This document shows, in pieces, positions 24,277 through 30,200 of a stretch of 64,000 bases of DNA. Each line of letters begins with the position of its first letter. Within the stretch, counting starts at the first letter, position 1. Source of the DNA: Escherichia coli (GTDB taxonomy: Bacteria > Pseudomonadota > Gammaproteobacteria > Enterobacterales > Enterobacteriaceae); assembly GCF_044324875.1 (NCBI RefSeq), contig NZ_CP172185.1, one strand, 5' to 3'. The position numbers are program-made.

Positions 24277-27200
24277 TAACCCACAAAAATGCTTTTCCGT
24301 TCCTCTTTAATAAATTGTGCAACTGGTTAACTACCAGTTGCCATAGGGATATTTTTTATCTTTGATAAACTCAAGTACATATTCATCGTCTCCAAGAGAA
24401 AAATCATGCCGGGAAATTCCTTTACACATTTCCATTTTTTCACCTGAAACCGTTTCTATCAGAATCTGCTTATCCGTCAGGCGAATATTGGGCTTGTCAG
24501 GTTTCTCCAGCCATACGCGTACTTTTCCTTCTGGAGCCAGACCGATTAACAGATACCGCAGATAATACTTTTCACTGCCACCGCCTGGTGGTGAATAAGG
24601 TGTGAGCATCAATTTCCAGACGTCTCCCGCCAGCGTTATCCAGGTTTCATACACTTTTTTATCAATCACTGAATCCCAGCAGAAATGGATAGACATAGGG
24701 GGATTTTTGGCTTTATTGAATGATAACACCCCAACCCGAAGATTATCTCTCCACTGACCAATAGTAGTGGAACTCGGAGCGGTAGCATCCAGCGTTCTGA
24801 ACTGATAATAGATACCATCAGTGTCCAATAGTTCTACATAGGTAACTTGTGCTGGTAGCGCATTAGGGTAGAAAAAAAGGAAATACCATTCATCATAGGG
24901 TGCAAGCAGTGATATTTTTTCTTTCGCTGCTGTCTGGACTGATCCGGCTATCATTAACGCAATGGTTAATCTATAAATTATTTTAGCTGTTATTTTCATT
25001 GTTACTTACCAGTTACCATAGGGATATTTTTTATCTTTGATAAACTCAAGAACATATTCATCGTCTCCAAGAGAAAAATCATGCCGGGAAATTCCTTTAC
25101 ACATTTCCATTTTTTCACCTGAAACCGTTTCTATCAGAATCTGCTTATCCGTCAGGCGAATATTGGGTTTGTCACGTTTATTAAGCCATACCCGTACTTT
25201 TCCTTCCGGAGCCAGCCCGATTAACAGAAACCGCAGATAATACTTTTCACTGCCACCGCATGGTGGTGAATAAGGTGTGAGCATCAATTTCCAGACGTCT
25301 CCCGCCAGTGTTATCCAGGTTTCATACACTTTTTTATCAATCACTGAATCCCAGCAAAAATGGATAGACATTGGTGGGTTTTTGGCTTTATTAAAAACTG
25401 ACGACATCCCTGATACTTTCTCGCTCCATTGTCCAACACTTCCTGGACTGGCATTGGTACTGGCCAGCGTTCTGAACTGATAATAGATGCCATCGGTATC
25501 TAATAATTCCACATAGGTAACTTGTGCTGGTAGGGAATCAGGGTAGAAAAAATTGAAATACCACTCATCATAGGGTGCAAGCAACAATATTTTTTCTTTC
25601 GCTGCTGCGTTAAAGTTAAGAACCATAGACGTAATAACAAACAGTAATTTTATATTAAATTCCATTTTGTTTATTCCCTTGCATATCGTATATAGTTCTG
25701 GTCCAATTTTCATCCGGCCGATTAACAAAACTAAACGTCTTAAACGCTGATACTTCAGCAGACACCTTATTTTTTAATCGATAATCGACGGTATTCCAGT
25801 TGGAAGAACAGTGTAAATATTTCCCAATGGTTTTAAGCTCATCATCAGAAAAAGGCATCGGCGCTGTACACAAGAGAACGGCTTTACCCTGAGAAATTGC
25901 TTTTTCACATATTACCTTTAAATGACTGGGAACTTTTAATTCCTTATCAGCAACAGAAATGGCATCAAATACTACCCCTGCCTCTTTAGCGACTTCATAC
26001 ATTACTCTTAACGCAATCTTTGACCAGTCATTGGTGATCGTTCTGCGAAATGTCACCGCTGCAGCGACCCGTTTTCTCACATTACCTAAGTGGTCAGGCG
26101 ACGCTATTTCATCAATATTGGATTCAATTTTTAGGACACCAGAAGGCAGAATCGGAGCCAGCGTCGAATAGCGCCACAATAACTCTGCCTGCTGTACTGC
26201 TTTTTGGTAAGCGCTTGTCGCTTCCATCGGCACATTTCCCAGTACCGTTTCAATCGCCGGGCGACTTAAAAACAGGTACTCATCTTCCTGTGGGTCATAA
26301 CCGCCACCAATATCAGCATGTGATCCAGGGAAACTTAATTCTGGCCAGCTTTCCTTTATGCTGTTGAGGCAAAAGTTATAGCGACATTCGTTCATTGCTG
26401 TGAGCTGGAATACATGTTTGGCCACACCTGGCGGTAACTTCACTTTTACCGGAAAGTTATTACCATCATGAGGGTCAAAACCATCCATCAGCCCTCCGAT
26501 GGCTGCAACTGTGTCAAAAATACCTAAAAATTGCACTTCCCCGGAAGGTTTACCTAAATATTCAACTGACTGAAATGCCGTCGCAATGGTTTTAATCAGT
26601 ACGGGATCACGTTCAAATACGCGATTAGTAAAGTGCCGTGCGGCTGCCGCCCCACGACTAAAGCCAAATACGTCAAACTGTAGACGCTTAATTACTAGTT
26701 TAGCATCCTTTAAATCAACAATAATCTCTGCCAGTGTCTCACGAAGCAGTGATATCGCACGGTCAGTTTTGGCAATTACCCCAGTATCATTATTTCCTAG
26801 CCCCATTCCTACCAGAGAGTCTGCTTTATTATTTTCAGTGCCAATACCTTCAATATATATTTTTTCCTGAATATTAAATACATCATCATCTAAAACTAAT
26901 TGCCGATGATACAACTCATTCAACCAATGAATATTCGTATAGTAATTCAAATAGCTCTGTACTCCGGATCCCGTTTTACCCTGCTTGCTCATACATTGTT
27001 TATTAAACGAGGCCAAATCCTGGACATCCAGACCATAGGTTTCTGGTTGGCAAAAACTCATACGTAAATTCGTATTGGTTAAATTGTTTCCTGTGCCATC
27101 AAAGAATACGCCAATGGTGAGGATAATTTCTCGTTCAGGCGGTATTTCTGGTTTTTCCTCAACAGGTAAGAGCGTCGGTGGGAAAAGGCGATTATAATTT

Positions 27201-30200
27201 TCAGGTGTGAGTAAATAACTAAATTCTGTATTGGCTGTAAGATGCTTACAGTAGATATATTTGTAGTGTATTGTTATATATTGATAGTCGAGTTCATTTT
27301 CTTTTATTATAATCTGATTCTGAGTTAACGTTGCACCGCGGACTTCAATATAATAATAACTTTCCCATTTCCCATATTTATTAATACGATAAAAATCAAA
27401 CTCAAAACGGCATCGTTCGTTATTATTAATGCAATTCATCAGCAGCGGTGAGCTTTTATCGAGAATTTTACAAAATTGTATCGCTTGATGATTAATGCCA
27501 AATCCTGTATTACTCACTCCTCCCTGAAAACTAAAAACAAATATTTCATCTTCATGTCCCTGTTGATACCGATTCCCGACAGAGGCTTGCGTCCCGCATC
27601 CTGCAGAAATATTACCTTGTTGCTCCCCTGTAATGCGTAAATATATAATGTCACCCATATGATTACACCCATTCCATAGATTTTAATTATATAATATAAA
27701 CTTAATAAACATCTCATTTGGCAATGTATATTAATTATATGTTTGGGCATAACAATTTTTTAATTACGTGATGCACTAATAATAAAGCCGTTTATCTACC
27801 AGGTAGAAATAAACGGCTTTGTCACATCACCCCACAAACTGCCTGAATAGCGCCTTACCCTTAACCAGTCGCGCGCCAAGCCAGCCGCCGAAAAGTGACA
27901 GCAGCAGCGCACCGCTACAAGGCAGAACAATCCACAATCGCCAGTCTGGCTCCCACGGGAAATCAAACACTTTCGCCTGCAACACCGCCAGTGCCGTTTC
28001 CGCACCAATTGCGGCCACCAGGCCGGATACAAACCCGAGCATGGCGAACTCACACCACAATGTCGTGCGCAGCAGTTTTTTCCCCGCACCGAGTGTGCGC
28101 CACACCACCAGCTCCTGATGACGCTGACGCATTCCCACCTGCACCTGTGCCAGCAACAGCAACATACCGCAGGCGGTGACCAGCACCACCATCACCTCCA
28201 GCGCCCGACTTACCTGCTCCAGCACCTGACCGACCTGTTTTAAAATCGCGCCAATGTCTAACAGGCTAATGGTAGGGAACTGGCGGTTGAGTTGCGTCAA
28301 CATGCCGTTGCCATTCTCCCAGCGGAAACTGGTAAGCCAGCTCTGCGGTTGCCCGTCTAATGCCCCTTCAGGGAAAATAAAATAGAAATTAGGCCGCAGA
28401 CTTTCCCAGTCCACTTTGCGCAGGCTGGTCACTTTAGCGCGGAACTCCTGGGTATCGCCCATAAAAGTCACGGTATCACCGAGGGCAACGTTTAAGCGTT
28501 TCGCCAGCCCCTCTTCCATCGACACTTCATCGGCTTTTGGCGGCCAGTTACCGGCGACAATCGGATTATGATCGGGCCGCGTATTTTGCCAGGTAAGATT
28601 AAGTTCGCGATTGAGCGCCTCATCTTCATTGCCTTCTGTCGGCTTGCCGTTAATCGCCGTCAGTCTCGCCCGCACCACCGGATAAAATGATTCCGGGACT
28701 ATCTGATGTTCCGCGAGGAACGCTTTTAGCGGTGCTACCTGTTCTGTGGCGATGTTAATTAAAAAGTAGTTCGGGCTTTCTGGAGGTAGCTGCTGCTGCC
28801 AGCGGTCGAGCAGATCGCCACGCAGCACCAGCAGCAGTGCCAACAGCATAAAGGAGAGCGAAAATGCCGAAAGCTGGCTTAACGTTGACCACGGCTGACG
28901 TAACAGGCGGCTAACCGCCAGGCGCAGAGGCAGCGATTTCAGCGTCATGCGGCGAAGTACATTCAGCAGCATCCAGCCCAGCACACCGCACAGCAAAGCC
29001 AGTACTACCGCGCCCGCCAGCACCGCCAAAAGCAGCATGCTGCCACCCATTAATCCGGCGAGCAGCAGCACAACCACCACACTGACAATCGGCAGATAAA
29101 ACTTCAGCGGCCAGACGTTCGCGACCACATCATTACGTAATACGCGTAAAGGCTGCGTTGCCAGTAACAAGCGGTATGGTCGTAGCCCCACCAGCAGCGA
29201 GATAACCGTCATGGTGCCCAGCGCCCATAGCCACGGCCAGAGGCTGGCTGGCGGTAGTGCAGCAGGCAGAACGGGCTTGAGCAGCACCATCAACACGTTT
29301 TCGAACAACAGGCCTATCGCCCCACCGGTAACGGCTGAAAGCGTCAGCACCATCAACCACTGACCGACGATTAGCTTACGCAGTTGCGCTCGCCCTGCCC
29401 CCAGCGTTTTGAGGATCGCCACCAGATCGTAGCGACTGCGACAGTAATGATTCATCGCCACCGCCACCGCTGCCACTGCCAGCAGCAAGGTCAGAAGCGC
29501 AGAAAGCAGCAGGAACTGTTGCGAGCGTTCCATCGATCGCCCCAGCGCGCCTTCATCCTGTTCCAGACCGTACCAGCGTTGTTCGGGTTTAAGCTGAGGT
29601 AACAACCATTTCTCATAGCCGTCGAGCTGGTTCTCGTTGCCGCCGAATTTATAGCGCCAGGTGACCCGACTTCCCGGCTGCACGGCTCCGGTTTTATCGA
29701 CATCCGCCAGATTCATCATCAGACGCGGAGCCATCTGGAAGGGGTTAAAACCGGAATCCGGTTCCTGAATCACTTCTCCGGCAATCCGCAAGGTGGCATC
29801 ACCCACGTCGATGGTGTCGCCTGTTTTCAGGTTAAGCAGTGCCATCAGGCGTGGGGCCAGCAATACGCTGCCCGCCTGCGGTTTCAGGCCTGGGGGATTA
29901 GTTTGCAGATCGCCATACATCGGGTAGATATCATCCACCGCTTTGACGTTCGCCAGCTGCGGTGTGTCGCCTGCAAATGTCATGGTGGCGAAAGTCAGCT
30001 GCTTGCCGACTTTCAGGCCGCGCTTTTGCGCTTCCTCCAGCCACGCTTGCGGCACTTCGCGCGAACTGCGCAACGCCCGATCGCCCGCCATAAACTCACG
30101 GCTTTGCTGGCTTAAGCCCTTCTCCATGCGATCGCTGATATTGCCCAGCGCCAGCACGCAGGCCACCGCCAGGCTTAGCGCCAGCCAGACAATTAATAGC

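Follow-up and report, generated by a model that had tools for sequence, protein, structure and literature searches.

What is an Hcp, the inner-tube protein of type VI secretion systems (T6SS), doing on one polypeptide with a lipase, at a chromosomal site apart from the genes of that apparatus? The question is raised by a 64,000-nucleotide (nt) stretch of Escherichia coli DNA (RefSeq assembly GCF_044324875.1, contig NZ_CP172185.1; this whole stretch is called the window here), for which a preliminary description had proposed a 667-amino acid (aa) protein at 25655-27658 joining an N-terminal Hcp domain to a DUF2235/Tle1-like hydrolase. We found a single ATG-started open reading frame (ORF) there, on the minus strand, a strand which that description had not given; the frame is unbroken over 667 codons, and translation of the plus strand over 25655..27658 gives many stops. 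We are highly confident that the product of this gene, here called hcp-tle1, belongs to the Hcp-ET2 class (ET, C-terminal extension toxin) of specialised, or "evolved", T6SS effectors. The earlier reading of the protein as of Hcp-ET type, an Hcp carrying its own antibacterial phospholipase, is supported by both domains, by the aligned catalytic triad and by the neighbouring DUF2931 genes. The parts of the gene, with the support for each, are as follows (EAEC, enteroaggregative E. coli; pLDDT, predicted local distance difference test).

25655..27658 (stop included), minus strand: hcp-tle1 coding sequence, very likely an Hcp-ET2-class specialised Hcp effector, 667 aa, 75.2 kDa (ORF and domain matches)
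27209..27658, minus strand: Hcp/TssD domain, residues 1-150 (TIGR03344, PF05638, AlphaFold/Foldseek)
27143..27208, minus strand: junction and Pro-rich linker, residues 151-172, TPENYNRLFPPTLLPVEEKPEI (pLDDT below 50 for residues 143-173)
25658..27142, minus strand: Tle1-type phospholipase domain, residues 173-667, 55.1 kDa (6sjl_D, Foldseek, PF09994)
26657..26659, minus strand: codon (AGT) of the predicted nucleophile Ser334, in GFSRG (aligns with EAEC Tle1 Ser197)
26513..26515, minus strand: codon of the predicted catalytic Asp382 (aligns with EAEC Tle1 Asp245)
26318..26320, minus strand: codon of the predicted catalytic His447 (aligns with EAEC Tle1 His310)

The N-terminal part was recognised as Hcp by profile and by fold, as had been proposed. 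The NCBIfam model TIGR03344 (TssD/Hcp), whose curated cut-off is 58.9 bits, scored 125.4 bits on residues 1-149 (E=2e-36), and the Pfam search suggested in the preliminary description was run and placed PF05638 on residues 6-138 (E=5.8e-13). An AlphaFold model was built on an alignment of 31 homologues and used for fold assignment, not for active-site geometry; its mean pLDDT was 64.9, with block values mostly of 70-87 in the N-terminal domain. Using Foldseek, we matched the N-terminus of this model to the Hcp crystal structures 6a2v, 3he1 and 5mxn, at E-values of 1e-11 to 1e-13 and target-normalised template modelling (TM) scores of 0.76-0.86.

The remainder of the protein matched PDB entry 6sjl_D, the Tle1 of EAEC, from end to end (query residues 173-661 against chain residues 30-541, E=1.4e-127). 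The Pfam family for the Tle1-like catalytic domain, PF09994, covers only residues 369-460 (E=9.6e-11), and 6sjl_E, again Tle1, was the top Foldseek match of the model (E=2.8e-33), with the Hcp structures next. By these profile and PDB matches, both halves of the fusion lie far beyond chance. The two signatures named beforehand are present, GVFFDGTGNN beginning at residue 183 and GFSRG at residue 332, and the codon given for the nucleophile does read AGT and encode Ser334. In EAEC Tle1 the triad is S197/D245/H310 and an S197A mutant is inactive, according to a preprint that cites Flaugnatti et al. (bioRxiv 10.1101/2024.03.05.583533). Ser334, Asp382, His447 and the whole GFSRGAAAARHF block showed no variation across the 31 homologues (46-95% identity), and besides the triad about 110 positions were invariant across genera. 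The C-terminus is thus a full-length Tle1-type alpha/beta hydrolase by homology, for which phospholipase activity and periplasmic toxicity are predicted.

The two domains meet at a motif, NTEFSYLxxPxxYNxLF, which spans the last Hcp strand and runs into the linker (window 27180..27230, residues about 143-160). When residues 1-161 were used in an exhaustive search of representative sequences, we recovered Hcp relatives of 370-590 aa that are 48-61% identical and whose C-terminal domains are unrelated (Col-Pyo_DNase, Pyocin_S, HNH, Tox-REase-3, DUF3289, Amidase_2 and others). This exhaustive search was needed for the other Hcp-ET classes, the Hcp domain alone having returned mainly fragments from a word-indexed database; in a fragment of one other Hcp-ET (P0137), Pfam gave the Hcp domain and nothing more. 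The motif is common to Hcp-Tle1 and to Hcp-ETs with unrelated toxins, and divergence starts directly after it. It marks where the variable toxin starts and looks like the conserved junctions of other polymorphic toxin systems, resembling the pre-toxin junctions of Rhs and CdiA. A description of this junction was not found in the literature searched, the primary Hcp-ET paper lying outside that search.

An antibacterial effector would be expected to have immunity genes beside it, and the genes downstream of the lipase, which the preliminary description had put forward for testing, turned out to be two members of the DUF2931 (Tli1) family.

25006..25665, minus strand: predicted immunity gene 1, DUF2931 (Tli1 family), 219 aa (PF11153, E=5.4e-28; DUF2931 in the RefSeq annotation of the AF40 orthologue)
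24331..24999, minus strand: predicted immunity gene 2, DUF2931 paralogue, 222 aa (RefSeq annotation of AF40; likeness to gene 1)

Together with hcp-tle1 they are packed into a tight operon. The ATG side of immunity gene 1 overlaps the hcp-tle1 stop by 11 nt, and a 6-nt spacer separates its own stop from the start of immunity gene 2. Pairing of a Tle1-type lipase with DUF2931 recurs elsewhere, in fusions of Salmonella and Enterobacter and with a stand-alone Tle1 behind vgrG in a T6SS cluster. Both immunity proteins begin with Sec-type signal peptides, ending ...NFNAAA/KEK in gene 1 (MEFNIKLLFVITSMVLNFNAAA/KEK) and ...VQTAA/KEK in gene 2. The EAEC Tli1, also a DUF2931 protein, is described in the same preprint as an outer-membrane lipoprotein with a lipobox (bioRxiv 10.1101/2024.03.05.583533), and lipoboxes are present in further DUF2931 homologues (LTGC in Enterobacter, VSGC at the T6SS-cluster locus). 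We looked for a lipobox in both proteins of the window and found no cysteine within the first 40 residues. Because an N-terminal cysteine is missing, the motif rule predicts that the two are soluble periplasmic proteins and not lipoproteins. Neither had a match in NCBIfam, nor a sequence match in PDB even at E-values up to 10.

The two immunity paralogues are 80% identical in aa sequence, and this identity is unevenly spread: the N-terminal halves agree at 63% of positions, the C-terminal halves at 96%, and most of the differences fall in a single loop (about residues 66-92). The second paralogue of ST131 ends in the C-terminal tail CNGRSAYKHGYSYPESTKNF in place of CKGISRHDFSLGDDEYVLEF, and its variable loop is different as well. 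Together, the near-identical C-terminal halves here and the differing tail and loop of ST131 suggest gene conversion between the tandem copies in the lineage of the window and AF40.

These three genes make up most of an AT-rich islet, for which we list the boundaries and the candidate signals.

24259..27821, no strand assigned: AT-rich islet of 3.56 kb between mnmH (selU/ybbB) and ybbP (K-12 MG1655 homology ends at 24258 and resumes at 27822)
27734..27763, minus strand: sigma-70-like promoter candidate TTAAAA-18-TATAAT, about 75 nt 5' of the hcp-tle1 start codon (consensus scan, 10/12)
24319..24341, minus strand: terminator-like hairpin over the stop codon of immunity gene 2 (consensus scan; 9-bp stem, 5 GC pairs)

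Promoter-like matches in the region were fewer than in shuffled controls, and the count of terminator-like hairpins was not above the shuffled expectation. The GC content over 24280..27826 is 39.5%, against 54.3% for the window, 57.6% for ybbP and 54.9% for mnmH; the flanking genes are E. coli core genes, about 98% identical to those of K-12 and AF40. Low GC is the sole pointer to a horizontal origin of the islet, and suggests one. Origin from a mobile element or prophage was considered and set aside, no integrase, transposase or tRNA gene being annotated in the AF40 orthologue of the islet; no repeat search was made. In K-12 the same ybbP-selU slot holds the 7.3-kb rhsD-ybbC element, with rhsD, ybbC, ylbH, ybbD and ylbG (4836..12141 of the K-12 region examined). 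In Salmonella enterica subsp. houtenae it holds hcp-tle1 with one DUF2931 gene and an extra 377-aa gene (8266..12680 of the region examined). By these gene contents the slot looks like a conserved integration or replacement hotspot for different orphan T6SS toxin/immunity modules. Enterobacter cloacae also has an orphan two-gene module of fusion and DUF2931 gene, at a site other than ybbP-selU.

In order to assess how widespread the islet is, we searched 5426 complete E. coli genomes with a 4-kb query, at least 80% of which was covered in 569 genomes (about 10%), O25b:H4-ST131 included. In every RefSeq record inspected the locus was annotated, the fusion being called "Hcp family type VI secretion system effector" or "tssD" and followed by two DUF2931 genes. 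The protein of AF40, the nearest complete genome, differs from that of the window by one aa (N16D), its islet being 99.6% identical. The ST131 protein differs at 12 aa, and that of FDAARGOS_144 (1756..3759 of the locus examined) at 24, some of which belong to a replaced, mosaic patch (lipase residues 252-266). In a collection of 5.8 billion proteins, matches above 90% identity formed only two clusters (98% and 95%), one of them E. coli by source name; the next match stood at 69%, and a Salmonella protein (P0018) looks like a shortened form of it. Full-length fusions of 659-668 aa with both Pfam domains and 45-69% identity are widespread in Enterobacteriaceae, having been found in Salmonella, Atlantibacter, Kluyvera, Enterobacter, Lelliottia, Cedecea, Trabulsiella and others. 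The closest stand-alone Tle1 (57% identity) is part of a T6SS cluster, where it lies directly behind vgrG and has three DUF2931 genes after it.

Such an effector would need an apparatus. Annotation transfer from the collinear AF40 placed no T6SS core, VgrG or PAAR gene in the window (T6SS hidden Markov models were not run on every ORF), which bears out the earlier view of an orphan module. That this module would depend on a T6SS encoded elsewhere was also foreseen, and two islet-bearing genomes, AF40 and ST131, do have complete clusters elsewhere. In AF40 the T6SS lies about 300 kb from the islet in the aspV island, with tssB, C, E, F, G, J, K, L, H, A and M, tagH, vasI, two hcp genes, vgrG and an Rhs gene, and the metV site is empty. 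In an islet-bearing ST131 genome (isolate 86) it is the aspV site that is empty, and metV holds a complete T6SS of a different type; strain Z247, with a 97% identical islet, has the metV type. Judged by tssBC, the aspV type is present in 2184-2279 and the metV type in 1324-1431 of the 5426 genomes; co-occurrence with the islet was gauged from the three spot checks (AF40, ST131 isolate 86 and Z247) and from these separate prevalences. We compared the Hcp domain of the fusion with the Hcps of these clusters. With the two Hcps of the AF40 aspV cluster it shares 36% identity (the short one of 159 aa, E=2e-32) and 28% identity (the one of 172 aa), and with the metV Hcp 31% over 90 residues, a weak match (E=6e-8). 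Ring assembly and T6SS-dependent export of the domain are presumed, the 36% identity to an aspV-cluster Hcp being the one indirect pointer.

Two further features of AF40 were noted. Its rpoS is frameshifted. The short 159-aa Hcp gene ends the aspV cluster and is followed by two hypothetical genes, the first of them truncated, and then by one for an LprI-family lysozyme inhibitor (13693..15894 of the region examined); this group may be another Hcp-linked effector/immunity set or the remnant of an extension toxin.

Based on this organisation, we propose the following course of events. hcp-tle1 and the two DUF2931 genes would be cotranscribed, and the Hcp domain would join the Hcp ring of a T6SS encoded elsewhere, probably as one copy per ring among ordinary Hcp subunits. 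Contraction of the sheath would then push the lipase, covalently joined to Hcp, into an adjacent Gram-negative cell, in whose periplasm Ser334/Asp382/His447 would hydrolyse membrane phospholipids, so that the cell is killed or inhibited. The secreted DUF2931 pair would bind the lipase in the periplasm and thereby shield the producer and its kin. The Tle1 homology of the fusion starts at Tle1 residue 30, and stand-alone homologues have their own unrelated N-terminus of about 30 aa; EAEC Tle1 uses a beta-strand at its N-terminus to dock on VgrG, at the TTR domain (PMC10715212). Hcp and the Pro-rich linker would stand in for this VgrG-docking segment, and loading would thus be via Hcp and not via VgrG.

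Several observations weigh against the view that hcp-tle1 encodes a working Hcp-ET2 effector. The structural check proposed in the preliminary description gave the Hcp fold and the Tle1 fold, but the model is poor (pLDDT below 50) over residues 382-455, which include Asp382 and His447, so that the triad is predicted from the alignment. The T6SS of the window's own strain is presumed from the relatives AF40 and ST131, the VasL gene of the AF40 aspV cluster is frameshifted, and the two islet-bearing genomes carry different T6SS types (aspV and metV). The low Hcp identities given above for both types make compatibility with either apparatus an assumption, and some lineages may hold the toxin without a compatible machine. 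As the islet occurs with two T6SS types, either its Hcp domain would be promiscuous across apparatuses or whole lineages would carry a toxin that they cannot use. At least one copy is a pseudogene, namely that of strain 377323_2f, in which hcp-tle1 is frameshifted and has an internal stop (432..3756 of the locus examined); there immunity gene 1 is intact and the second immunity gene is frameshifted.

The size of the cargo is a further difficulty. The portion past Hcp amounts to 57.7 kDa, which as a sphere would be about 51 Å across, and the Hcp lumen measures about 40 Å. A 30-kDa addition to an Hcp cargo has been reported to jam a T6SS (PMC8262886); a structural study has argued that a ring has room for only one Hcp-ET and that a cargo can extend through several of them (PMC13323088). 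It is possible, and we hold it only tentatively, that Hcp-Tle1 is delivered by a route undescribed for Hcp effectors, either as a tip-proximal or capping subunit with the toxin outside the tube or with a partly unfolded toxin laid across rings. The junction would then be a hinge or docking element as well as a recombination joint for toxin swaps. On that proposal, transit inside the lumen is ruled out because a folded lipase part of 55-58 kDa and about 51 Å exceeds it.

Other readings of the locus have to be set against the effector. The toxin might be stranded, an orphan without a compatible T6SS, in an islet retained mainly for immunity genes that guard against the Tle1-type lipases of competitors; we regard this as improbable. 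The window does lack a T6SS by annotation transfer from AF40; however, its protein is only one aa away from that of AF40, which has one. The position of ST131 speaks in favour of stranding, since its empty aspV site leaves it without the cluster of the short Hcp, the closest to the fusion among the four Hcps compared, and with the metV type only, whose Hcp is very distant (E=6e-8). The broken hcp-tle1 beside an intact immunity gene 1 in 377323_2f points the same way, but in the window the frame is intact over all 667 codons, and across genera no variation is seen at the triad or at about 110 further positions. A pair of paralogues differing mainly in one loop would suit several toxin alleles, and K-12, which is not known to have a T6SS, keeps rhsD in the same slot. 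Against retention for immunity stand the coverage of at least 80% of the 4-kb query in 569 genomes and the active delivery of the published Hcp-ET2, as stated in reviews (PMC6730261, PMC6099711).

A role of the lipase mainly as a virulence factor against the membranes of a eukaryotic host is less probable still. Lipases of the Tle families hydrolyse lipids common to both kingdoms, and a review table gives both prokaryotic and eukaryotic targets for EAEC Tle1, but what marks out an antibacterial effector is a neighbouring pair of immunity genes whose products go to the periplasm. A Tle1 of Vibrio cholerae is reported to promote virulence (PMC10395195), and the islet is carried by many extraintestinal isolates from humans, ST131 among them; the published phenotype of Hcp-ET2 is nevertheless interbacterial antagonism, and the two roles can coexist. 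We give hardly any credence to the last alternative, a plain structural tube protein whose C-terminal part is not a toxin. It is true that most genomes name the gene tssD or "type VI secretion system tube protein" in RefSeq and that its Hcp domain passes the curated TssD model. However, a stretch of about 500 residues is homologous throughout to a phospholipase toxin of solved structure and has an intact triad, immunity genes lie directly 3' of hcp-tle1, and the gene stands outside T6SS clusters, which have ordinary hcp genes of their own. The antibacterial effector of the Hcp-ET2 class is hence the reading that we retain.

The remaining window is collinear with AF40. In it lie the allantoin regulon, ybbA-ybbP, tesA, fetAB and cueR, as well as a giant adhesin with its type I secretion system. 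The adhesin is a 6843-aa ORF (43409..63940, minus strand), the counterpart of the "BapA-related adhesin SiiEA" of AF40, and is highly repetitive inside, with many self-like BLAST matches of 72-76% identity. Beside it, within an adhesin locus of 40071..63940, are a type I secretion ATPase (41243..43405) and an HlyD-family adaptor (40071..41246). A 461-aa ORF lies in 37570..38955, where AF40 annotates a 338-aa YadA-family autotransporter adhesin, and aligns with it in part at 82.5% identity; about 1.2 kb (37200..38394) is without a match in AF40, which indicates a variable adhesin locus. AF40 has an IS1397 (IS3-family) between ybcF and purK, and the window has no insertion there (about 3091..3126).

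Whether this fusion had been characterised before was left open by the preliminary description, and the answer is yes for the class, published as Hcp-ET2. It was Ma et al. (2017, Virulence 8:1189) who defined, in Enterobacteriaceae, the classes Hcp-ET1 to Hcp-ET5, named for their C-terminal extension toxins; according to reviews (PMC6730261, PMC6099711), Hcp-ET2 is the E. coli Hcp-DUF2235/Tle1 of enterotoxigenic E. coli (ETEC) PE321 (A31K_02346), has the immunity protein ETi2 and mediates T6SS-dependent interbacterial antagonism through its Tle1 phospholipase activity. The DUF2235 phospholipase was likewise marked as a known class of specialised Hcp by Howard et al. (2021). The window protein resembles Hcp-ET2 in having PF05638 and PF09994 on one polypeptide, in E. 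coli, next to an immunity gene; in the window there are two such genes in tandem, and PE321 has at least ETi2. Since the matches above 90% identity form only the 98% and 95% clusters, one of them named E. coli, the published protein and that of the window are very probably one and the same orthologue. The locus is therefore already known and not new: its architecture, toxin family, immunity family and T6SS dependence have been published, it is annotated in RefSeq, and it is common in E. coli. Four points are worth keeping: how an oversized cargo would be delivered, that the immunity pair is predicted not to be lipoproteins, that Hcp-ETs share a junction motif, and that different orphan modules occupy one slot.

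Tle1/Tli1 of EAEC (EC042_4534/4535; 6SJL, 6SKI) is the nearest system on the side of the toxin. Its lipase is homologous over the whole length, with the same GxSxG, the same Ser/Asp/His triad and a DUF2931 immunity protein. EAEC Tle1, however, is a stand-alone phospholipase A1, a VgrG-loaded cargo of T6SS-1 encoded behind vgrG in the cluster, whereas the window gene is an orphan and fused to Hcp; and EAEC Tli1 has a lipobox, in contrast to the cysteine-free signal peptides of both window proteins. The window gene would offer a common natural example of an effector that has switched its loading device, from VgrG docking to covalent fusion with Hcp.

On the side of the carrier, the other Hcp-ETs (ET1, HNH-DNase; ET3, pyocin S3; ET4, colicin DNase; ET5, papain-like peptidase) share the Hcp subfamily and the junction motif. 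Their toxins are different and smaller (proteins of 370-590 aa) and act on DNA or the cell wall, whereas the toxin of the window would act on membrane lipids. With a cargo far above the sizes shown to pass or stack in Hcp rings, Hcp-Tle1 is a test case for how specialised Hcps accommodate their loads.

The K-12 rhsD-ybbC element, finally, is comparable by position, being an orphan T6SS-type polymorphic toxin and immunity module in exactly the same ybbP-selU slot. It differs in belonging to the unrelated Rhs core protein family and in its length of about 7.3 kb. Across E. coli lineages this slot thus holds different orphan T6SS toxin/immunity modules, and in S. enterica subsp. houtenae it holds the same module as in the window.

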